IMG/VR virus record: IMGVR_UViG_3300031760_000015
Coordinates: 43,641 to 107,640 of that record
DNA from: a virus
Lineage: Duplodnaviria > Heunggongvirae > Uroviricota > Caudoviricetes
Reading direction: 5' to 3' (one strand)
Length of the DNA: 64,000 nt
The stretch's first letter is position 1. Every line of letters starts with the position of its first letter. A program made the position numbers and the translations under genes. Under the pieces are notes generated by a model. The model searched no databases and was not told the origin of the DNA. It was given only the letters and a program-made list of their open reading frames with translations. This document shows, piece after piece, positions 25,527 to 51,309 of the stretch.

Positions 25527-25928
25527 ATGGGAAAATTAGTTGATTTAGCAATCAAACTTCGCCCATATATTGAAAAAGCTGCTGCAAATTTAAATGATAC
25601 AGATGCACTTGAAGCAATTCAATTATTTCCTAAATGGGAGCCTAATATTAAATATGAGAAAGACGATAGAGTAAGATATGAAAGTATTTTATATCGTTGC
25701 TTACAACCACATAATTCTCAAGAATCTTGGACTCCACTCGCGGCCGCAAGCCTATGGGCTAAAGTTTTAATTCCAGATGAAAATGTTATTCCAGATTGGG
25801 AACAACCTGATAGCACAAATCCATACCAAATTGGAGATAAAGTAAGATTTGAAAATAAAATTTATGAATCTGTTATAGCAAATAATATTTGGGCTCCAAA
25901 TGTTTATGGGTGGAAAGAGGTACTATAA
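25527..25928 (+). CDS. carbohydrate-binding protein with two CBM5/12-like domains
   Basis: YEKDDRVRYESILYRCLQPHNSQESWTPLAAASLWAKV matches CBM5/12 chitin-binding signature (Y..GD.V.Y.G..Y.C.Q.HTS..W.P...ALW). Confidence 0.55.
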   Translation: MGKLVDLAIKLRPYIEKAAANLNDTDALEAIQLFPKWEPNIKYEKDDRVRYESILYRCLQPHNSQESWTPLAAASLWAKVLIPDENVIPDWEQPDSTNPYQIGDKVRFENKIYESVIANNIWAPNVYGWKEVL

Positions 25929-26626
25929 TGAATAATTATAAAGTTTATTGTCATACATCACCAAACGGAAAGCGGTATGTTGGAATTAGTAATAATCCAG
26001 AAAAAAGATGGAATAATGGCAAAGGATATATTAAAAATTATTTATTTTATCGAGCAATAGAAAAATATGGTTGGAATAATTTTAATCACGAAATTTTATA
26101 TGATAATTTGTCTATAGAAGAAGCCGGAGCGATTGAACAAGAATTAATCCAAAAATGGAATTTAATGAACCCAAATTTTGGATATAATTTACGAGAAGGA
26201 GGAAATGGTAAATTTTCTGATTATTCTCGTTATTTGATGTCTAAAAATCGTAAAGGTAATACTAATTCCGTGGGCCAATATCATTCATTAGAAAATCGTA
26301 AACAAATTTCTGAATCATTAAAAAAATATTATAAAGAGCATCCTGTTCAAAAATTAGATATGACTGATAATAAAGAATATCAAAAAATTATAGCAAAACG
26401 AAAAGAACTTACTCATCAGAAACTTTCATTAGCTACTAGTGGTGCAAATAATCCTAGTGCTCGTCCTATAAGACAGCTAGATAAAGAAGGTAATTTAATA
26501 GAAGAATTTGCATATGCCACTTTAGCTGCGAAAAAATATAATATTGATTTATCTAGTATTATTAAATATTGTAGAGGTAAACAAAAAACTTGTGGTGGAT
26601 ATAAATGGGAATATGTTAATATTTGA
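25928..26626 (+). CDS. GIY-YIG homing endonuclease with NUMOD-like DNA-binding C-terminus
   Basis: YKVYCHTSPNGKRYVGIS...YRAIEKYG...NLREGG; C-terminal ...RGKQKTCGGYKWEY; start set to ATG 25928 (RBS GAGG). Confidence 0.7.
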   Translation: MNNYKVYCHTSPNGKRYVGISNNPEKRWNNGKGYIKNYLFYRAIEKYGWNNFNHEILYDNLSIEEAGAIEQELIQKWNLMNPNFGYNLREGGNGKFSDYSRYLMSKNRKGNTNSVGQYHSLENRKQISESLKKYYKEHPVQKLDMTDNKEYQKIIAKRKELTHQKLSLATSGANNPSARPIRQLDKEGNLIEEFAYATLAAKKYNIDLSSIIKYCRGKQKTCGGYKWEYVNI

Positions 26627-30639: not shown

Positions 30640-30726
30640 GCGTCGGTATGCCTAGCAGCGAGAGCACTTGGCTGTAGACCAAGTACGTTAGAAACACCGT
30701 GGGTGCAACTCCTACCCGGCGCACCA
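30640..30726 (+). tRNA. tRNA-Tyr(GTA), type II
   Basis: anticodon arm CTTGG-CTGTAGA-CCAAG, long variable arm, CCA. Confidence 0.65.
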
Positions 30727-30899: not shown

Positions 30900-33797
30900 A
30901 TGAAAAAGGGAATAGTATATTTTATACTATTGACTTTTTTATTTTTTATATTTCCAAGTTTTTCTGAAGAATTGGAAATAGAAATAGAAGAGCCAATAGA
31001 TGTTATTTTTCCAGTAGAAGAAAATGAAATAAACTTAGAAGATAATTTAGATTTAATTTCTATAAATGAACTTCAAGCTAACAATTTAGAAATACCAGAA
31101 GAACAAGAAGTAGAAATTCCAGACCTCCCAAAAGAATATAATTTTAATATAGAATTATCTAATTTAACTGGTTATTCTATTATAGCTTTAAATAATGCTT
31201 TTATTGACTCACATATTAGAGGTTCTTTATGGATTGGAAATACATTAACTAGTAATGAATGGTGCGGTTCAGACGACGGTTCAATTAATCACATACCTTC
31301 TGGAACAGAAAGTTATATATATAATAATGAATCTTCAATGTATTTTCAAGGTCGCACTGAAAATCAAAGTAAAGATGCTTATAAAAAATTAAGCGCGGCC
31401 GCAGTTGAAACTACAAAAGATTATTGGACTAATATAATAAACTCATTGCCTAACGATGAAGAACAATGGATTTATGTAAAACCTGATGAAAATGGTTATG
31501 TTAATTTAACAAAATGGGATTATCAAACTCAAGGAAGCGATGAATCCCAGGAATCTATTGAAAAAATATATTGGACAAACGCGTCTAAAGTAGATATGGG
31601 CGGCTTAGCCGGCCATTTAATTGCTCCATTCGCAGAAATTGATATTACTTGGTGTAATCATAGAGGAGCAATTGTAGGATGGAATATTACTACGCACGGT
31701 GAAGCCCATATTAATTATTGGACTCCCGAAATTATAGAGCCAACCTCTTCACCTACCGAAACACCTTCTCCAACAGCAACACCAGCTCCAGGCAAAATTA
31801 TTCTACAAAAAACATTAGTAAATGACGTTTGGCATATTCGTTGTGATGTTATGGATGGAACAACTTTCCAAGCTGGCGGCGGAATATGGAAAACTGATGT
31901 TATTATGAATCCAAATAAAAAAACAAGTAAAGAAGGACATAGGTCTAACAAATGCGGCGATGCCGACCATTGGATTATATGGTTAGATAATACAGGGACT
32001 CCATTTAGAATGGATGAAATAAAATCTGGAGCAACTGGTGGCACTTTACCCACTATGATATTTGAAGAAGTATATTCACCGCAAGATTTAGGATTTTCTG
32101 GTTGGGGAGAATTAGAACCAGAAATGACTGACAAAGTTGAATTATATAAAGAAAACTTTAAAATTCAAAAAGATATTACAACTGTAAAACCAGGAGAAAG
32201 AATATATTGGATTACTTGGAATAAAGACCAACGATGGTATCACAGTGGTGTGCCATATATTGCACCACCAACTTTTACTTTTTATATTGATGGAGAACCA
32301 TATCCTATTGTTGCTGGTAATTATCTTGAATTGGATGATGTATTGCCGGGCGCGCACGAAATTAGAGAAGATGTAAGCCTTGATGACTATATTATTACAA
32401 TATTTGGCAGTGATGAAGTTGAAGGCACAAAGTCTATAATTAATATTATAGATGGAGAAACTATAGAAGTAGAATATGTAAATGAAATTATTACTCCACC
32501 AACTGAACAACCTTCTACTCCTCCTGCACTACCTACTCCAACTCCAACATCTACACCTACAGTTGTTCCAACACCTACACCCACACCTACAGCGGTGCCT
32601 ACGATTGCTCCAACTATAAAACCAACGGATACTCCTATACCAACATCTACCCCTATTCCTACTGAAATACCCACTATAACTCCTACAGAAAAACCAACCA
32701 TACAACCAACATCTACCCCAACAATTAAACCTACTATCGCGCCAACTAAAACTCCTACTCCTACTGAAACATCACCAATAAAATCAACTGAAAATCCTAC
32801 CCCAATAGAAACTTTAACTCCAACTATTTCTCCTACGCTAGAAATAACTATAACTCCAACAATAATGCCTACGGAGGAACCTACACATGAACCAACAGAA
32901 AAGCCTACAGCAAAGCCAACACCAACTCCCAGTCCCGCACCCACTTCAATACCAGCAAGCCCAACTCCACCAACAGAGCCCAGTCCCGCGCCAACTATCA
33001 CCATCACTCCAACAGTTGAGCCCACCACAGTTCCTACAATACGACCAACTGATACACCAGTTGTTACAGCTACCCCTGGAAAGCCTAGTGAGTCTCCTCG
33101 ACCTAAACCAACACCTACCGAAACAATAAAACCTACGGAGGAGCCTACAAATGAACCGACTACAATTCCTACAGTGGTGCCGACAACAGAACCTACAGTT
33201 AAGCCTACTGCAACGTCTACAAATACTCCTACTGTGGCCCCTACCAATACGCCGCGGCCTACTCGTAAGCCAACGCTAACACCAGTAAAACCCACGAAAA
33301 CTCCAAAACCTACAAATACTCCTACTCCAACAAATACGCTAAGTATTAAACCAACAATAATTCCAACGCCAAAACCTACTAAAACCCCTGAAATTCTTAT
33401 TCCTTCATTAAAACCAACAGAAATAATACCTACTGAAACTCCTACAATTAGTCCGGCGCCAACAAGGACACCAAAACCAACCGAATTAATTATTATAGTA
33501 GATTTACCAACATTTACTCCCACACCAACTGCAACCCCAACTCCTAGACCTACAGTTCCACCCGAAGTAATAGAAGAAATTATTATTAATCCTCCACCAC
33601 CAGTTTCTAATAGACCAGATTTTTCTCAATATACTGATGAAGAATTAGAAGAATTATTTGATTTCTGGGGCTATCAAACTCCTTTATATGGTATATTCCA
33701 AACAGGTGACGAAATACCAATAGGAATAATAATAGCTGGATTGGCTGGATTATTGTGTTTAATTTTATATTTTATATTAAGAAAATATAATATTTGA
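30900..33797 (+). CDS. secreted/membrane-anchored surface protein: signal peptide, globular domain, about 350-aa Pro/Thr-rich linker, C-terminal TM helix
   Basis: MKKGIVYFILLTFLFFIFPSFS signal; PTPTPT repeats; C-terminal IIIAGLAGLLCLILYFILRKYNI. Confidence 0.65.
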   Translation: MKKGIVYFILLTFLFFIFPSFSEELEIEIEEPIDVIFPVEENEINLEDNLDLISINELQANNLEIPEEQEVEIPDLPKEYNFNIELSNLTGYSIIALNNAFIDSHIRGSLWIGNTLTSNEWCGSDDGSINHIPSGTESYIYNNESSMYFQGRTENQSKDAYKKLSAAAVETTKDYWTNIINSLPNDEEQWIYVKPDENGYVNLTKWDYQTQGSDESQESIEKIYWTNASKVDMGGLAGHLIAPFAEIDITWCNHRGAIVGWNITTHGEAHINYWTPEIIEPTSSPTETPSPTATPAPGKIILQKTLVNDVWHIRCDVMDGTTFQAGGGIWKTDVIMNPNKKTSKEGHRSNKCGDADHWIIWLDNTGTPFRMDEIKSGATGGTLPTMIFEEVYSPQDLGFSGWGELEPEMTDKVELYKENFKIQKDITTVKPGERIYWITWNKDQRWYHSGVPYIAPPTFTFYIDGEPYPIVAGNYLELDDVLPGAHEIREDVSLDDYIITIFGSDEVEGTKSIINIIDGETIEVEYVNEIITPPTEQPSTPPALPTPTPTSTPTVVPTPTPTPTAVPTIAPTIKPTDTPIPTSTPIPTEIPTITPTEKPTIQPTSTPTIKPTIAPTKTPTPTETSPIKSTENPTPIETLTPTISPTLEITITPTIMPTEEPTHEPTEKPTAKPTPTPSPAPTSIPASPTPPTEPSPAPTITITPTVEPTTVPTIRPTDTPVVTATPGKPSESPRPKPTPTETIKPTEEPTNEPTTIPTVVPTTEPTVKPTATSTNTPTVAPTNTPRPTRKPTLTPVKPTKTPKPTNTPTPTNTLSIKPTIIPTPKPTKTPEILIPSLKPTEIIPTETPTISPAPTRTPKPTELIIIVDLPTFTPTPTATPTPRPTVPPEVIEEIIINPPPPVSNRPDFSQYTDEELEELFDFWGYQTPLYGIFQTGDEIPIGIIIAGLAGLLCLILYFILRKYNI
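32500..33560 (+). repeat. low-complexity Pro/Thr(/Glu/Lys) codon repeat inside 30900..33797
   Basis: recurrent CCAAC(A/T)CC units; generates spurious minus-strand ORFs. Confidence 0.7.
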
Positions 33798-33822
33798 CTT
33801 TCTTTTAAAATTTTGCTATAAT
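33794..33822 (+). promoter_or_regulatory. sigma-A-type promoter TTGACT-N17-TATAAT
   Basis: -35 33794-33799, -10 33817-33822. Confidence 0.55.
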
Positions 33823-33866
33823 ATATACATAAGGTAAGGAAATAAAAAATTTTCTTACCTTAATAT

Positions 33867-33937
33867 AGGAGTTTAGTGTAATGGTAGCACAGCAGCCTCC
33901 AAATCTGTTTGTGAGGGTTCAAATCCTTCAACTCCTG
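33867..33937 (+). tRNA. tRNA-Trp(CCA)
   Basis: acceptor AGGAGTT/AACTCCT, anticodon loop CTCCAAA, T-arm GAGGGTTCAAATCCTTC. Confidence 0.6.
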
Positions 33938-33939
33938 CT

Positions 33940-34376
33940 TTAGGTTCCTCCTGTAAAAATCCTTCTGTTCGCGACAGTGAAAAGGAGTGGTTGTGGCTAG
34001 TAATATAGAAAAAGCAGAATTTATATTATGTGTTCGCCATTAAAGAACGCCGGGAGTTCTCTTACCCCGTAAGGTAGTCCGGAATACACATAAGATTCGC
34101 TCGGCGATTAGATTACGTCGTAAGACAATAAGGTGTCAGTCTAGCGGAAATTGAACTCGTTAGTGTCAATCGTGTAGCATACGAATAATGCTCGCTTGCC
34201 TGCCGTGTGACCGAAGGTGAGGTACGCTGCAAACCAAGAGTAGAAATTGCAGATTAGGGAATGTGTGCTTCGCGGGCACAGGTATTCCCGCGTGAGACTC
34301 GCGGTGAAATCGAGTGGCGGCTCCAATGGATTGAGGCCCAGAAGATGCCAATAGGAGAAGAAACCGCGAGATTTAT
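33940..34376 (+). ncRNA. GC-rich (about 48%) ORF-free structured block upstream of split tRNA-Met; contains GCGGG...CCCGC...GAGACT...TAGTCC motifs reminiscent of group I intron core elements
   Basis: no ORF >30 codons in a 30% GC genome; multiple GC helices. Confidence 0.35.
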
Positions 34377-34414
34377 GGGCGTCTAGCACAGTTGGTCAGT
34401 GCCTTCGGCTCATA
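34377..34414 (+). tRNA. tRNA-Met(CAT) 5' exon (acceptor, D-arm, anticodon stem + CTCATA)
   Basis: GGGCGTC-TA-GCACAGTTGGTCAGTGC-C-TTCGG-CTCATA; 3' partner at 34869-34904. Confidence 0.55.
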
Positions 34415-34442
34415 TCAAGCAAAATCATATCTATAAATTATT

Positions 34443-34853
34443 ATGGATACAAATATTAAAGGTATTATTACCGAATTAAAATGTAAAACTTATTTTTTAG
34501 AATTGGGATATACTGTCTCAACTCCAGAAAATCCAACGAGGTATGATTTTATTTTAGACACTGGAAATAAACTTATAAAAATTCAGGTTAAAACTTGTAC
34601 TTCAGATGGAGAAAAATTAAGTTTTGCTACTTGTTCTAGTCATTTTGTAAATGGAAAAGTTACTCATACTCATTATCAAAATGATAATATTGATTATTTT
34701 TGTACTTGGTATAATAATGAATGTTATCTAATTCCTGTATCAGAGTGTGGGAAAACTGAAAAAAAATTACGATTAGTTCCCACACGAAATGGACAAGTAA
34801 AAAAAATTAGTTTTGCTAAGGATTATATTGCTAAGGAGGTTTTAAATAGATAA
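34443..34853 (+). CDS. PD-(D/E)XK-like homing endonuclease within the tRNA-Met intervening sequence
   Basis: YDFILD ... KIQVKT motifs; paralog of 50608 gene; located between the tRNA halves. Confidence 0.45.
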   Translation: MDTNIKGIITELKCKTYFLELGYTVSTPENPTRYDFILDTGNKLIKIQVKTCTSDGEKLSFATCSSHFVNGKVTHTHYQNDNIDYFCTWYNNECYLIPVSECGKTEKKLRLVPTRNGQVKKISFAKDYIAKEVLNR

Positions 34854-34868
34854 GTGAGCTAGATATGA

Positions 34869-34904
34869 ACCGAATGGTCTTGGGTTCGAGCCCCAAGGCG
34901 CCCA
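34869..34904 (+). tRNA. tRNA-Met(CAT) 3' exon (A38, anticodon stem CCGAA, variable loop, T-arm, acceptor GGCGCCC)
   Basis: T-arm TTGGGTTCGAGCCCCAA; acceptor complementary to 34377-34383; flanking GATATGA pairs with the CTCATATC end of exon 1. Confidence 0.55.
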
Positions 34905-34926
34905 TTTAATAAAAAGGAGTTATATA

Positions 34927-35094
34927 ATGAAACTTGAAGAAATTTTAAAAAAAGATATTGATACTCTTTTAATTTATTTAGAATTTTCTTTAACTATGCT
35001 TTTAACTTCAGAAGGATATACTTACGATAAATGGGCTTTTCTTTTTAAAGCTATTCGTGAAGAAATTATTAGACGAACTGGAGAACATAAATAA
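34927..35094 (+). CDS. small hypothetical protein (55 aa)
   Basis: RBS AAAAGGAG; below cutoff. Confidence 0.35.
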   Translation: MKLEEILKKDIDTLLIYLEFSLTMLLTSEGYTYDKWAFLFKAIREEIIRRTGEHK

Positions 35095-35391
35095 TTGACT
35101 TTTTATTTAAATTATAATATGATAAATATATCAAGCAAGAAAGGAAAATTATTTATGAATTTTGTATTAATTAATGCTCAAGGAACTTTAGAAAAGAAAA
35201 TTGAAGTTAATACAGTTGAAGAAATAATGAATTTAATTAAAGAATATAATAATGCAGTTATATTTTACCCTGAACATGATTATTATAGCTCTCTTTATAA
35301 TTATCCAGTTATACAAATTTATGATGATTATATAGAATAAATAAATGTGTTTAAATAATTTACTTTTGGAAACAACACATTTTAGAAAGGT

Positions 35392-36072: not shown

Positions 36073-36984
36073 ATGAAAAAAATTAAAAAGAATGGTTTAT
36101 CTTTTGGAATTTTTGGTGCTATTGCCGCAATTCTTGTTGTTCTATTATTTATAGACTTGACTACGCCACAATATGGATTTTTTGCAAAAGTTAATGCAGG
36201 TTATGTGGGTATTAGAGAATATTTTGGCAAAGTGCCTGATGAACCGTTACAACCAGGTTTTCATGTGACTCGTTTTTTTGAGCATGTTCATCCTGTCGAT
36301 GTTAGAACTCAACGCAACACTTATAAAATGGAAGCATTTAGTTCCGATATTCAGCAAGTAATTGTTACAGTTGCAGTAAATAGTAATATTTCATCTGAAT
36401 CTGCGGGAACCTTATATAAAACTGTTGGTATGAATTATCTTACTACTCTAATGGAACCTCGTCTATTAGAAAATGTAAAAGTTGTAATTAGTCAATATAC
36501 CGCAGAATCTTTAATTGCTCAACGAGAAACTTTATCTAAACAAGTTTTAGAATTAATGCAACAAGATTTAAAGTCTTATGGAATTGTTATTAGTAATATT
36601 TCTGTAGAAAATATAGATTTTACAGATGCTTTTGAATCAAGTGTAGAAGCTAAACAAGTTGCTACTCAAGAAAAACAAAGAGCTAAAACCATTCAAGAAC
36701 AGCAAACTATGGAAGCTCAACAAGCAGCAGAGCGTCAAAAGATTGCTGCGCAAGCAGAAGCAGAAGTAGCTAAAACAAAAGCAGATGCAGAAGCATATGT
36801 TGTTCGCGCAAAGGCAGAAGCAGAGGCAGAAGCTAATAAGAAAATCAATGAATCTTTAACTCGCGATTTAATTGATTATACACAAGTTCAAACTTGGGAT
36901 GGTAAGTTACCTACTTTTGTAGGCGGAGATTCTAGTATTCCTATTTTTAATATTGAAACAGAAACTACGTCAACTCAGGAATAA
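36073..36984 (+). CDS. SPFH/band-7 (prohibitin/HflK-like) membrane protein
   Basis: N-terminal TM, SPFH core, C-terminal QA/EA-rich coiled coil. Confidence 0.6.
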   Translation: MKKIKKNGLSFGIFGAIAAILVVLLFIDLTTPQYGFFAKVNAGYVGIREYFGKVPDEPLQPGFHVTRFFEHVHPVDVRTQRNTYKMEAFSSDIQQVIVTVAVNSNISSESAGTLYKTVGMNYLTTLMEPRLLENVKVVISQYTAESLIAQRETLSKQVLELMQQDLKSYGIVISNISVENIDFTDAFESSVEAKQVATQEKQRAKTIQEQQTMEAQQAAERQKIAAQAEAEVAKTKADAEAYVVRAKAEAEAEANKKINESLTRDLIDYTQVQTWDGKLPTFVGGDSSIPIFNIETETTSTQE

Positions 36985-36998
36985 TATGAATACATATA

Positions 36999-37024
36999 AA
37001 CGCACGGGAAACCGTGCGTTTTTC
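36999..37024 (+). terminator. rho-independent terminator
   Basis: AACGCACGG-GAAA-CCGTGCGTT then TTTTT. Confidence 0.7.
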
Positions 37025-37027
37025 TAT

Positions 37028-37056
37028 TTGACTTGGTATAAAAATTATGATATAAT
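37028..37056 (+). promoter_or_regulatory. sigma-A-type promoter TTGACT-N17-TATAAT
   Basis: -35 37028-37033, -10 37051-37056. Confidence 0.55.
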
Positions 37057-37080
37057 ATGTTTAGACAAGGAGGAGATAAT

Positions 37081-47384: not shown

Positions 47385-47954
47385 GTGATTATTATGAAAA
47401 AATGGGAAAGGTTTTCTGATGAAGAGTTGCAAGAAATTGCTTATAGAAGTTCTTGCTTAGGAGACTACGCTAAAAATTTAGGCTATTCTATAAAAGGTAC
47501 TAGTGGTAATAGTGCTCGTTCTTCTGTAAAAGCAATGATTGAACTTAAACAAATAAATGTAATGCATTTTAAAGGTTATAAAGATAAATCTACACAATTT
47601 AATTATAAACATGTTAATGAAAATTATAATGTTAGTAATTTATTTATAGAAAATAGCTTCGCAGAAAGAAAACTTATTAGACGTTATTTATTAGCATATA
47701 ATTTAATTCCATATAAATGTGCTTTTTGTGGTAATGAAGGGGAATGGCGAGGAAAGCAGATTAGTTTAGAATTAGACCATATTAATGGCAAGCATAATGA
47801 TAATAGATTAGAAAATCTTCGTTGGCTTTGTCCAAATTGTCACGCTACTACTCCTACATACTGCGGTAAAAATATAACTTATCAATGTGAACAAGCCCTG
47901 TTAGCTCAGTCGGTAGAGCATTCGGCTGGTCAGATAGAAACAAGTCCTAGTTGA
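47385..47954 (+). CDS. HNH homing endonuclease
   Basis: CAFCG ... DHINGKHNDNRLENLRWLCPNCH; 3' end overlaps tRNA-Thr exon 1. Confidence 0.7.
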   Translation: MIIMKKWERFSDEELQEIAYRSSCLGDYAKNLGYSIKGTSGNSARSSVKAMIELKQINVMHFKGYKDKSTQFNYKHVNENYNVSNLFIENSFAERKLIRRYLLAYNLIPYKCAFCGNEGEWRGKQISLELDHINGKHNDNRLENLRWLCPNCHATTPTYCGKNITYQCEQALLAQSVEHSAGQIETSPS

Positions 47955-48020
47955 GTGCAAGACTCAAATCTGGCACCATTAACCGAAGTGTCGGCAGTTC
48001 AAGTCTGTCACAGGGCGCCA
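47895..48020 (+). tRNA. tRNA-Thr(GGT) interrupted by a 50-nt insert in the anticodon loop (insert 47931-47980, between nt 36 and 37)
   Basis: acceptor GCCCTGT/ACAGGGC, D-arm GCTCAGTCGGTAGAGC, anticodon stem TTCGG/CCGAA, T-arm GGCAGTTCAAGTCTGTC, CCA; insert folds into CAGAT/ATCTG and TTGAGT/ACTCAA helices. Confidence 0.55.
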
Positions 48021-50551: not shown

Positions 50552-50587
50552 GGCGGGTTAAGCCTAATGGTAAGGCAGGAGATTGCT
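50552..50587 (+). tRNA. tRNA-Ser(GCT) 5' exon
   Basis: GGCGGGT-TA-AGCCTAATGGTAAGGC-A-GGAGA-TTGCT; partner exon at 51251-51309. Confidence 0.5.
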
Positions 50588-50607
50588 TTTTTACTTAATT
50601 AAACTTA

Positions 50608-51225
50608 ATGGTAGAAACAAAGATTAAAGGGCTTACGACAGAATTATTATGTCAGGCATATCTTACTTCTTTAGGATATAATATTTCTATTCCTATTGGC
50701 GAAGATTGTAGATATGATATGATTCTGGATTTAAATGGAAAACTTTTGCGTATACAAGTTAAAACTTGTCAAGAAGAAGAAAATAGAATATCTTTTCGTA
50801 CTTGTAGTATTACAACATCCGGAAAAGAAAATATTATTCATAAATATACTAAAGACCAAATTGATTTAATAGCTACTTATTATAATGACCAATGTTATTT
50901 AATTCCAATTGAAGAATGTGAAGGAATGAAAGGTAGAAGTTTAGTTTTTTCACCAGAAAAAACAAATGCTATTAAACCTTTATATATTAAAGATTATACA
51001 GCAGAAATCATTTTAAATAAAATCCTTAATAATGAACAAATTAAAAAGGAGGATGATTTTATTGTGTATCAATATGATTTAAATAATAACTTACTTAATC
51101 AATTTTCTTCATACGCAGAAGCAGGAACTTCCATTAACAAACCTTCTAGTCATATAAGTCAATGTGCTAGAGGATTAAGAAAAACCGCATATGGTTTTAT
51201 TTGGTCATTAACATTAAAGGATTAA
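50608..51225 (+). CDS. PD-(D/E)XK-like homing endonuclease with NUMOD-like C-terminus, inside the tRNA-Ser intervening sequence
   Basis: YDMILD ... RIQVKT; C-terminal ...CARGLRKTAYGFIWS; paralog of 34443 gene. Confidence 0.45.
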   Translation: MVETKIKGLTTELLCQAYLTSLGYNISIPIGEDCRYDMILDLNGKLLRIQVKTCQEEENRISFRTCSITTSGKENIIHKYTKDQIDLIATYYNDQCYLIPIEECEGMKGRSLVFSPEKTNAIKPLYIKDYTAEIILNKILNNEQIKKEDDFIVYQYDLNNNLLNQFSSYAEAGTSINKPSSHISQCARGLRKTAYGFIWSLTLKD

Positions 51226-51250
51226 GAAAGAAAAAAAGCAATCTCCCAGT

Positions 51251-51309
51251 AATCGACGTATGTCGGTGTTTCGGTTCAAGTCCGAAACCCGTCGCCAATT
51301 GTGGACTGT
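51251..51309 (+). tRNA. tRNA-Ser(GCT) 3' exon (AA, anticodon stem TCTCC, variable-arm hairpin CGAC-GTAT-GTCG, T-arm, acceptor ACCCGTC, G, CCA)
   Basis: acceptor complementary to 50552-50558; intron-proximal AAAAGCAA pairs with TTGCTTTT of exon 1. Confidence 0.5.

Follow-up and report, generated by a model that had tools for sequence, protein, structure and literature searches.

Split tRNA gene and endonuclease insert

Can a tRNA gene that is interrupted inside its anticodon loop by little more than an endonuclease gene still give rise to a tRNA, and by what means would the insert be removed? This question is raised by a tRNA(CAU) gene of a virus of the class Caudoviricetes (IMG/VR record IMGVR_UViG_3300031760_000015), of which a stretch of 64,000 nt, positions 43,641 to 107,640 of the record, was analysed; this whole stretch is called the window, and its own numbering is used below. 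The insert was found to belong to a large family of structured, mobile, endonuclease-only inserts in phage tRNAs, in which a pairing rule between the anticodon and the 3' end of the insert sets both junctions. The family represents a mobile, endonuclease-bearing kind of tRNA intervening sequence that is apparently undescribed.

With introns allowed, ARAGORN predicted a tRNA-Met(CAT) gene at 34376-34905 with an intron of 454 nt. The joined exons form a perfect 74-nt cloverleaf with one G-U pair in the acceptor stem. An earlier note on this DNA had described a tRNA(CAT) split by a 454-nt insert made up mainly of a PD-(D/E)XK open reading frame (ORF), with acceptor strands complementary except for one G-U. 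ARAGORN and the Pfam family PF11645 agree with the first point, and the second is seen in the cloverleaf. The gene is composed as follows:

34377-34413, plus strand: exon 1 of tRNA(CAU) (ARAGORN; intron-less orthologues L120, L122 and L127), with the acceptor 5' strand GGGCGTC, the D arm, TTCGG (34404-34408), C32, U33 and the anticodon CAT (34411-34413)
34414-34867, plus strand: insert of 454 nt between nt 36 and 37, a ribozyme-free mobile element with leader, endonuclease ORF and trailer
34443-34853, plus strand: PD-(D/E)XK homing endonuclease of the I-Ssp6803I family, 136 aa (Pfam PF11645; 2OST match)
34868-34904, plus strand: exon 2, with A37, A38, CCGAA, the variable loop, the T arm, GGCGCCC and the discriminator A

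In the window sequence alone the junction carries a one-base ambiguity (CTCAT/A or CTCATA/). It was assigned to nt 36/37 because this is the position in the types with an unambiguous junction, namely the Asn type (GTT/T...C/AA) and Enterococcus phage EFP01 compared with phage iF6; the position after nt 37 (37/38) given in the earlier note is corrected accordingly. The leader (34414-34442) has 29 nt and the trailer (34854-34867) 14 nt, in total 43 nt of non-coding sequence. The shortness of these flanks had been recognized before, at about 28 and 15 nt, and the exact split is adjusted here. The empty site CTCAT^AA is present in orthologous intron-less alleles and in five other phage contigs. 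CCA is not encoded in exon 2. An alignment of 16 homologues shows covariation of the acceptor stem and the anticodon stem across the insert (RNAalifold). With its anticodon CAU the tRNA may be tRNA-Met or, through lysidine, tRNA-Ile2; it presumably resembles bacterial tRNA-Ile2.

The ORF matches PF11645 (PDDEXK_5) with E=6.7e-24 and 84.9 bits (cut-off 26.1), and its top PDB match by sequence is the homing endonuclease I-Ssp6803I (2OST, E=0.019). The AlphaFold model (pLDDT 88) also has 2OST as its top fold match (TM 0.77, E=1.5e-7). Residues D35, Q48 and K50 are invariant, and E11 nearly so, in a ten-sequence alignment with identities down to 31%. Sequence, fold and the D...QxK signature all place the protein in the I-Ssp6803I family, in line with the first description of the insert as an I-Ssp6803I-type endonuclease gene in a tRNA anticodon loop. 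A relationship to EndA was considered and rejected, the archaeal splicing endonuclease 3AJV being ranked 49th in the fold search (E=1). In a collection of 5.8 billion proteins, 267 homologues were found at E<=1e-5; the best 120 of these 267 all carry PF11645 and nearly all are nameless. The ATG start codon of the ORF is not preceded by a Shine-Dalgarno (SD) sequence.

Closing helix and anticodon pairing

The sequence TCATATC (34410-34416) is complementary to GATATGA (34862-34868), and RNAalifold recovers this pairing independently from the 16 homologues. It had been noted earlier that the insert termini extend the anticodon helix; this helix proves to be the covarying hallmark of the whole family. 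Three helical parts, Pa, Pb and Pc, were distinguished in the closing stem:

34410-34416, plus strand: 5' strand of Pa, consisting of U33, C34, A35, U36 and the insert bases A, U and C, with the 5' junction inside it (34413/34414); RNAalifold columns 36-42:514-520
34418-34434, plus strand: closing-stem part of the leader, with Pb 5' (34418-34419), the internal-loop strand CAAAAUCA and Pc 5' UAUCUAU (34428-34434)
34846-34868, plus strand: closing-stem part of the trailer, with Pc 3', the loop strand, Pb 3' and Pa 3', and the 3' junction at 34867/34868

On the 3' side, the Pc strand A-UAGAUA (34846-34852) overlaps the stop codon (34851-34853). It is followed by the loop strand AGUGAGC (34853-34859), whose last C is the first base of Pb, by Pb CU (34859-34860) and by the Pa strand, GAUAUG plus A37 (34862-34868). 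Pb (RNAalifold pairs 44-45:511-512) and Pc (54-60:492-501) covary in the Met-type family, with the compensatory pairs UA10/CG5, UA7/CG6 and AU7/GC6. They flank a conserved internal loop, GCAAUAnCA / AAGUGAG, in which GCAAUAnCA is the family consensus of the strand CAAAAUCA.

The anticodon stem was set by tRNA geometry alone before the inserts were tabulated. The 38 non-redundant inserts interrupt tRNAs with nine anticodons (CAU, CGU, UGA, UAA, GUC, GUU, UUU, UAU and UGG), at position 36/37 in all cases; L052b, L059, L062b, L066 and L092 were left out, as their junction is not fixed. For all 38 inserts the 3'-terminal triplet pairs with the anticodon (anticodon/triplet: CAU/AUG, UGA/UCA, UAA/UUA, GUC/GGC, GUU/AGC, UUU/AAA, UAU/AUA, UGG/CUG, CGU/ACG). 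Moreover, U33 pairs with A37 or G37, and the first three to four insert bases pair with bases -4 to -7. In 36 sequences aligned without gaps, 94.9% of the cells are paired as compared with 54.9% after shuffling (0 of 500 shuffles equal), the covariation score is 0.983 as compared with 0.208 (reached in 0 of 500 shuffles), and pairing falls to 42% or less when the register is slid by 1-3 columns. Because the pairs include G-U (GUC/GGC, GUU/AGC, UGG/CUG), the pairing appears to be selected in RNA and not in DNA. An origin of the inverted repeat at the DNA level, by target-site duplication after a 3-nt staggered cut or by hairpin P-nucleotides, was rejected, since the predicted direct repeats or junction palindromes were not seen and G-U pairs are present.

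One continuous helix, stacked on the anticodon stem, contains both junctions; they lie on opposite strands with 3 bp between them. From this geometry, removal of the insert would amount to a staggered double cut that leaves 3-nt 3' overhangs. If the junction is allowed to slide, a stagger of 5 is possible in the Met type and of 1 in the Asp type; the Asn type permits no sliding, and 3 is therefore the sole value common to all types. RNase III was discarded as the cutter, since it leaves 2-nt overhangs and the consistent stagger is 3. RNase P and RNase Z were discarded as cutters of the large inserts, as the junctions are within a helix and not at a helix end with a 3' tail. I-Ssp6803I reportedly cuts each DNA strand beside the anticodon triplet, leaving 3-nt 3' extensions. 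If this stagger is right, the RNA helix may mirror the DNA homing site in its left half-site and central triplet, both cut positions being in register.

Shine-Dalgarno-like motif at the 3' end of the insert

The missing SD sequence in front of the endonuclease gene has a possible counterpart at the other end of the insert:

34833-34839, plus strand: SD-like AAGGAGG in the last codons (K-E-V), of putative function

Its AGGAGG core begins 34 nt from the insert 3' end; between AAGGAGG and the stop codon there are 11 nt. The motif [AG]GGAGG is present 33-38 nt from the insert 3' end in the Met, Thr and Leu types, in all but one of the Ser type and in the Pro insert of L019, and the Asn and Ile types have GGAGGA in that 3' region. 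None of the inserts with such a motif carries an SD sequence before the start codon, whereas the Asp and Lys types and Ser_L064 are without the 3' motif and have an SD sequence 5-9 nt before the start. In the 16 Met-type ORFs, the codons at the motif are AAG in 12/12 and GAG in 15/16 cases, against 18-19% of the Lys/Glu codons elsewhere; by this codon usage, the motif appears to be held at synonymous positions. In the Pro type, it may pair instead with CCUC in the leader. Circularisation of the insert would yield the arrangement SD, 5-6 nt, closing hairpin, 8-9 nt and AUG. This layout could be likened to T4 genes 38 and 25, which have split ribosome-binding sites.

Tests for group I, group II and bulge-helix-bulge introns

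A ribozyme could be responsible for removal of the insert in three ways: as a group I core provided in trans by the RNA upstream, as a core hidden in the ORF, or as a small ribozyme of a new kind, made of the closing stem with its conserved internal loop. A group I tRNA intron is the classical home of this endonuclease family (PMC1995217), yet RNA catalysis is considered very improbable here. The criterion applied for a group I intron was a P3-P9 core, about 200 nt or more of structured RNA, and such a core was not found: there are 29 + 14 nt of non-coding sequence and no Rfam match. Rfam 15 (cmscan, E<=10) returned only tRNA-Trp and noise for 33800-35000; at the gathering threshold, nothing was returned for the insert or the block upstream of it in the whole window, and no group I match at the gathering score in 11 related loci. 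The interior of the ORF (27% G+C) forms short A+U-rich hairpins only, with almost no compensatory changes among the 16 homologues (RNAalifold). The earlier statement that there is no room for a group I core thus stands.

The window insert follows a U and ends in G like group I introns, U36 being the last exon base. Across the family this U(-1)/terminal-G rule fails: nt 36 can be U, A, C or G, and the last insert base G, A or C, with U in L003 and L020. As both bases vary freely, the signature in the window is ascribed to chance, and the group I boundary rule was rejected. The conserved internal loop of the Met type could point to a small ribozyme, but its motif was not seen in the Ser, Asp, Asn or Lys types.

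For group II introns no Rfam match was obtained (domains I-VI, notably V), and the sole ORF of the insert is the 136-aa PD-(D/E)XK nuclease and not a reverse transcriptase. The two 3-nt bulges, 4 bp apart, of a bulge-helix-bulge (BHB) intron were not found either, as both junctions are inside a continuous helix whose junction-flanking pairs are 92-100% formed. Two other properties of BHB-type introns are present, namely pairing between intron and anticodon, here in nine tRNA species, and cut sites related by two-fold symmetry, here 3 bp apart on opposite strands. The check for group I, group II and BHB anatomy proposed in the earlier note therefore ended with no Rfam match and no bulges at the junctions.

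The RNA that might act in trans is the following:

33939-34376: GC-rich block of about 430 nt, non-coding, exactly between tRNA-Trp (33867-33938) and exon 1

Its G+C content is 49-54%, compared with about 28% for the window, and at least 13 phage contigs of IMG/VR contain homologues with 72-93% identity. The alignment of 12 sequences (RNAalifold) contains 78 pairs, 28 of them with compensatory changes, and long invariant single-stranded stretches including GCCGGGAGUUCUCUUACCCCGUAAGGUAGUCCGGAAUAC and GAUGGAUUGAGGCCCGGAAGAUGCC. Folded as a single sequence, the block has a z-score of only -1.1. No Rfam 15 family was found for it at E<=10, here or in a diverged homologue. The block is conserved and, by its covariation, structured; it is probably released from the tRNA transcript and is a candidate new large phage RNA. 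Conservation of structure would fit a catalyst, but nhmmer and blastn found no homologue of the block at 19 other insert-bearing loci, while it is present next to the intron-less orthologues L120, L122, L127, L128 and L132 and is followed by other tRNAs in L124, L126, L130, L135 and L136. Because it lies beside insert-less or other tRNAs and is absent from all other insert-bearing loci, it was concluded not to be part of the insert mechanism. The earlier description of the block as G+C-rich and non-coding was accurate; its supposed link to the insert, as a source of catalytic RNA, was not sustained.

Distribution and variants of the family

Scanned were IMG/VR, a set with one genome per species, and metagenomes, and about 90 loci were returned. 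ARAGORN identified endonuclease-sized tRNA inserts (430-510 nt) at 53 places. Outside these 53, an ARAGORN call at 50552-51297 of the window was rejected as a false positive around a free-standing second PDDEXK_5 gene. The inserts are carried by phage contigs from human gut and rumen, 100-400 kb in length, and also by L009, a contig of 402 kb; some of the phage contigs are binned to metagenome-assembled genomes of Clostridia, Acutalibacteraceae and Bacilli. A DNA search against GenBank phages gave tRNA-Trp as the sole match. In Acidobacteriota chromosomes, the endonuclease has distant relatives of about 30% identity that are located outside tRNAs.

Some of the carriers are recoded phages. TAG is a sense codon in L014 and L026 and TGA in L018, because in-frame TAG or TGA codons occur where relatives have Gln/Glu or Trp, respectively. 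The recoded endonuclease ORFs (L014 2428-2986, L026 1429-1985, L018 2408-2963) indicate that the inserts persist across genetic codes. With endonuclease identities down to about 31% and three genetic codes, the family is large and old.

Two loci carry broken tRNAs. L002 (2950-3465) has kept the endonuclease gene, the whole junction helix and the 3' half of tRNA-Thr(CGU) and has lost the 5' acceptor strand and D arm. In L017 (2400-3045) a 5' half of tRNA-Ser(UGA) and an endonuclease gene with its own SD sequence are followed by a complete tRNA-Ser(UGA), and the distal helix pairs are gone. Stem mismatches were seen in the tRNAs of L001 (U-C in the T stem) and L003 (G-A in the anticodon stem). 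As a separate observation, ROOL RNA (RF03087, 296 bits) is located at L002 4966-5637, in the tRNA array and 1.5 kb from the PDDEXK_5 gene.

Mobility and empty alleles

Contigs syntenic with the window were found by means of exact words of the upstream block. In L120, L122, L127, L128 and L132, the order tRNA-Trp, block, tRNA is maintained and the orthologous tRNA is uninterrupted, with CTCATAA at the site. These orthologues share the acceptor strands GGGCGTC / GGCGCCC, the D arm and the T arm with the split tRNA. Differences between these orthologues and the window allele are confined to about 25 nt in the centre (TTCGG / CCGAA and neighbours). This tract matches exons of the donor type, e.g. 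those of L020; it is best explained as a co-conversion trace of homing. Five other phage contigs contain uninterrupted tRNAs with an identical anticodon arm.

A cultured example was found in Enterococcus phage EFP01 (KY549443.1, Schiekvirus), whose tRNA-Asn(GTT) is split by a 463-nt PDDEXK_5 insert with an unambiguous T36/A37 junction (L138 1414-1949, corresponding to about 105242-105777 of KY549443.1). The GenBank record shows no tRNA at this position, only a 'hypothetical protein'. In 29 other Schiekvirus records, including iF6, EFDG1 and EfV12-phi1, the flanks are contiguous and insert-less with 92-99% identity (mostly 97-98%), and a tRNA-Asn is annotated there in the majority of them. Phage iF6 was checked base by base and has an uninterrupted tRNA with exon sequence identical to that of EFP01. 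The intron-less orthologues, the co-conversion tract and the comparison of EFP01 with 29 sister phages point to recent homing, in the course of which the insert-less allele would have been cleaved.

Proposed mechanism and alternatives

The following course of events is proposed. An endonuclease-only mobile element would have homed into the tRNA(CAU) gene between bases 36 and 37. In the transcript, the tRNA halves would fold as a cloverleaf and a long stem would close the insert: in Pa of the window, the last three insert bases would pair with the anticodon, U33 with A37 and the first three insert bases with -4 to -6, with Pb and Pc beyond. In the first step a protein endonuclease would make two staggered cuts at the junctions. 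In the second, an RNA ligase would seal the nicked anticodon loop, as T4 Rnl1 does after PrrC damage, and in the third the freed insert RNA may circularise and then be translated. The candidate cutter is the insert's own dimeric PD-(D/E)XK enzyme, because it is the sole component that always travels with the insert. PD-(D/E)XK enzymes yield ends with 5'-phosphate and 3'-OH, and an ATP-dependent ligase can seal such ends directly. Structural relatives from SPARDA systems cleave DNA and RNA alike (PMC12205087). A candidate for the exon-joining enzyme was predicted in the window:

41746-42396, plus strand: ATP-dependent RNA ligase (PF09414, E=3.3e-17; phrog_548), about 7 kb downstream of the split tRNA

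A co-occurrence scan of insert and RNA ligase, made with a single protein, returned only close relatives on other contigs. As circularisation would bring the 3'-terminal SD-like motif upstream of the start codon, it is proposed that the endonuclease is translated only after excision.

The chances that the insert is a protein-dependently spliced intron are considered evenly balanced. More tentatively, it could represent a third kind of tRNA intron in bacterial viruses, in which the own endonuclease or a partner cuts a double-stranded RNA copy of the homing site with a 3-nt stagger, a ligase joins the exons and circularises the intron, and the circle serves as mRNA by means of the SD sequence stored at its 3' end. 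That the insert family constitutes a new splicing system is likewise suggested with reserve. The earlier note had listed protein-dependent splicing, a split tRNA and a dead gene as options; all three are retained here, and protein-dependent splicing is favoured.

The tRNA halves could also be released and work unligated, as a non-covalent complex held together by acceptor, anticodon, D and T interactions. Over a 7-bp acceptor stem and a 5-bp anticodon stem the halves match completely, and split or permuted tRNA genes exist in archaea and algae. However, the break at 36/37 falls inside the anticodon loop, and a break there is not known to be tolerated; the natural split tRNAs that are known are ligated before use. 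T4 requires Rnl1 to restore tRNA-Lys nicked in the anticodon loop, and the phage studied here encodes an RNA ligase. A functional split tRNA is therefore regarded as hardly probable.

A stronger alternative, although on balance a rather unlikely one, is that the insert is never spliced and is a selfish endonuclease gene that disables a dispensable tRNA. The closing stem would then serve the insert: the halves would fold tRNA-like for trimming by RNase P and RNase Z, and the mRNA of the endonuclease would be protected, or its translation controlled, by the tRNA body and the long stem. The intron-less allele in 29 of the 31 matching Schiekvirus records and in L120, L122, L127, L128 and L132 agrees with this, as it makes the inserts look recent and possibly transient. 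So do the endonuclease genes kept beside broken tRNAs in L002 and L017, the stem mismatches in L001 and L003, a second CAU tRNA in the window (42714-42787) and the lack of an identified splicing enzyme among the window ORFs scanned. On the other hand, a stem formed by the insert alone would suffice for such functions, yet the exon anticodon is always used and the pairing has been re-adapted to nine anticodons, with both junctions placed symmetrically in one helix. An SD sequence at the 3' end of the ORF, with none at the 5' end, makes little sense for a linear unspliced mRNA. In most insert-bearing loci the split tRNA is the sole copy of its anticodon seen in the array, and the size and age of the family also speak against a gene that merely inactivates its target.

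Several points weigh against protein-dependent splicing itself. The case for it is drawn from DNA, namely from the conserved junction helix and the intact cloverleaves, and since the inserts are recent, both intact cloverleaves and stem covariation could be inherited from uninterrupted ancestors. A mismatch lies beside the 3' junction in L003 and L020 (C-U) and in L088 (U-U). L002 and L017 have kept the triplet complementary to the anticodon despite loss of half of the tRNA, so it may be the insert, and not the tRNA, that benefits from the helix. The fold of the endonuclease matches a DNA enzyme, without specific likeness to the archaeal splicing endonuclease (3AJV at rank 49, E=1). That a single enzyme would cut both A-form RNA and B-form DNA is not a given. 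RtcB, EndA and RNase III were not found among the 50 window ORFs scanned with Pfam. Finally, even in the circle 56 nt would separate the SD sequence from the AUG, unless the gap is bridged by the closing hairpin.

Comparison with known systems

The group I intron of tRNA-fMet in Synechocystis PCC 6803 (655 nt, 150-aa ORF) encodes I-Ssp6803I (PMC1995217, PMC3384342). It has in common with the phage insert the PF11645 endonuclease (2OST fold, TM 0.77), the pseudo-palindromic anticodon stem-loop of a CAU tRNA gene as target, and homing. The phage insert differs by having no ribozyme or P3-P9 core, 43 nt of non-coding sequence and no U(-1)/terminal-G rule. In addition, the partner of the anticodon in the closing helix is the 3' end of the insert and not a 5' internal guide sequence, the family occurs in at least nine tRNA species, and its carriers are phages rather than cyanobacteria.

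Archaeal BHB introns are excised by protein, followed by ligation, and the excised intron is circularised and may act as mRNA. In design, the phage insert is closest to archaeal protein-spliced introns with homing-endonuclease genes, of which the rRNA introns of I-DmoI and I-PorI and archaeal tRNA introns are examples (PMC4090602, PMC3984707). Both are ribozyme-free, contain little beyond the endonuclease ORF, pair with the anticodon region and have cut sites related by two-fold symmetry; excision by protein, ligation and circularisation would be shared as well, although here they are proposals. The phage insert lacks the 3-nt bulges, has a stagger of 3 bp instead of 4 bp plus bulges, is positioned at 36/37 instead of 37/38 and encodes a PD-(D/E)XK instead of a LAGLIDADG enzyme. 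The host is a bacterium, and the scan of 50 window ORFs gave no EndA homologue.

The short 'enigmatic' introns in tRNAs of Lak megaphages (bioRxiv 10.1101/356790) are also inserts in the anticodon region of phage tRNA genes without an Rfam class, and the window has a similar one at 47895-48020. The Lak introns are only 25-80 nt long and ORF-less, and no endonuclease-carrying tRNA insert was reported there. The Lak-like short inserts in the loci studied here are usually 5' of or inside the anticodon, show a 'hairpin + CAGCAA' arrangement and do not obey the 36/37 rule.

These short inserts form a second kind. They have 25-80 nt and no ORF, are found at the anticodon or immediately 5' of it, and are far too small to hold a ribozyme. 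Besides the window they were observed at L001 1506-1630, L003 42-163, L004 2273-2390 and 3899-4031, L005 154-291, L015 2270-2413, L020 5804-5926, L026 501-634 and 808-933, L067 1690-1812, L082 10-131 and L085 821-975. Many of them consist of a hairpin followed by C(A/U)GCAA, and the anticodon-complement rule at 36/37 is not followed. Those in Thr tRNAs, including the 50-nt insert of the window, end in CACCA like the 3' end of a tRNA.

When the host nuclease PrrC has cut tRNA-Lys in its anticodon loop, phage T4 repairs the break with Pnkp and Rnl1 (PMC3400036). As in the proposed mechanism, a break in the anticodon loop is closed by a phage RNA ligase, the halves being kept in place by the cloverleaf, and the window also has an RNA ligase and repair-like genes in its tRNA array. 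The T4 system is a counter-defence, however, and removes no intervening sequence.

Free-standing endonuclease genes, together with insertions that split genes, are a further relative. T4 segB is such a homing-endonuclease gene in a phage tRNA cluster. In the Jug phage paper, 80 PDDEXK_5 genes are listed as stand-alone, and tRNA is not mentioned (PMC12880540). Like the insert, such genes are selfish and home into phage genomes, and the window has them too; they are intergenic, whereas the insert is inside a tRNA at a fixed nucleotide and has an RNA structure that includes exon bases.

According to a 2014 review, phage introns had until then been known from protein-coding genes only, although phages have many tRNA genes (PMC3984707). 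In the literature searched, no description of an endonuclease-only phage tRNA insert family was found, the term PDDEXK_5 appeared in no work besides the Jug phage paper, and the Lak 'enigmatic' introns were the sole later report of phage tRNA introns (10.1101/356790).

Genomic neighbourhood

The window is A+T-rich (about 28% G+C) and contains a tRNA array of at least 26 genes between 27.1 and 51.9 kb. It also encodes structural proteins and the lysin domains GH25, PG_binding_1 and SH3, which indicate a bacterial host. Transcription of the split tRNA can be related to the following element:

33794-33822, plus strand: predicted sigma-70-type promoter TTGACT-17-TATAAT with TG extension, 11/12 consensus matches, upstream of tRNA-Trp

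The next strong promoter-like site in the consensus scan is at 35095. Judged from this arrangement, the promoter at 33794-33822 probably drives a single transcript of tRNA-Trp, the GC-rich RNA and the split tRNA. Upstream, a secreted or membrane protein of 965 aa (30900-33797) contains a very long Pro/Thr-rich repeat region, because of which G+C content rises locally and GC skew is strongly negative in front of the promoter. A weak tRNA was called by Rfam at 30640-30723 (38.2 bits, 84 nt) and not by ARAGORN.

The RNA ligase gene closes an island of RNA-repair-like genes in the tRNA array (36073-42396), which further comprises:

36073-36984: SPFH/Band-7 protein
37057-37542: DUF5662 protein
37605-38108: PTH2 peptidyl-tRNA hydrolase
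38483-40111: Ro/TROVE-like 'RNA-binding protein' (DUF2828/DUF7788/VWA)
40356-40721: cyclic-phosphate-processing receiver domain
40666-41217: ORF of 183 aa with no assigned family

The array also includes a drum RNA at 43192-43303 (RF02958, 70.8 bits). Four further genes of homing-endonuclease type were observed in the window, at 25889-26626, 43971-44612, 47385-47954 and 50608-51225. The last is a free-standing PDDEXK_5+NUMOD1 gene, 42% identical to the tRNA-borne endonuclease. Two are GIY-YIG genes with NUMOD1 or NUMOD3, one of them at 43971-44612, and the HNH ORF at 47385-47954 abuts the second insert-bearing tRNA.

Significance

Standard tRNA finders miss split genes of this kind, as illustrated by the unannotated tRNA-Asn of EFP01 and by the 'stand-alone' PDDEXK_5 genes of Jug phages, and phage tRNA repertoires are therefore under-counted. 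The endonucleases of the family are a ready set of enzymes that target nine tRNA anticodon arms, and EFP01 together with iF6 or EFDG1 forms a cultured pair with and without the insert. If the insert is spliced, protein-dependent tRNA splicing, which has been thought to be confined to archaea and eukaryotes, would also occur in viruses that infect bacteria. In that case the family would illustrate, in extant viruses, the transition from ribozyme introns to protein-spliced introns that has been proposed.

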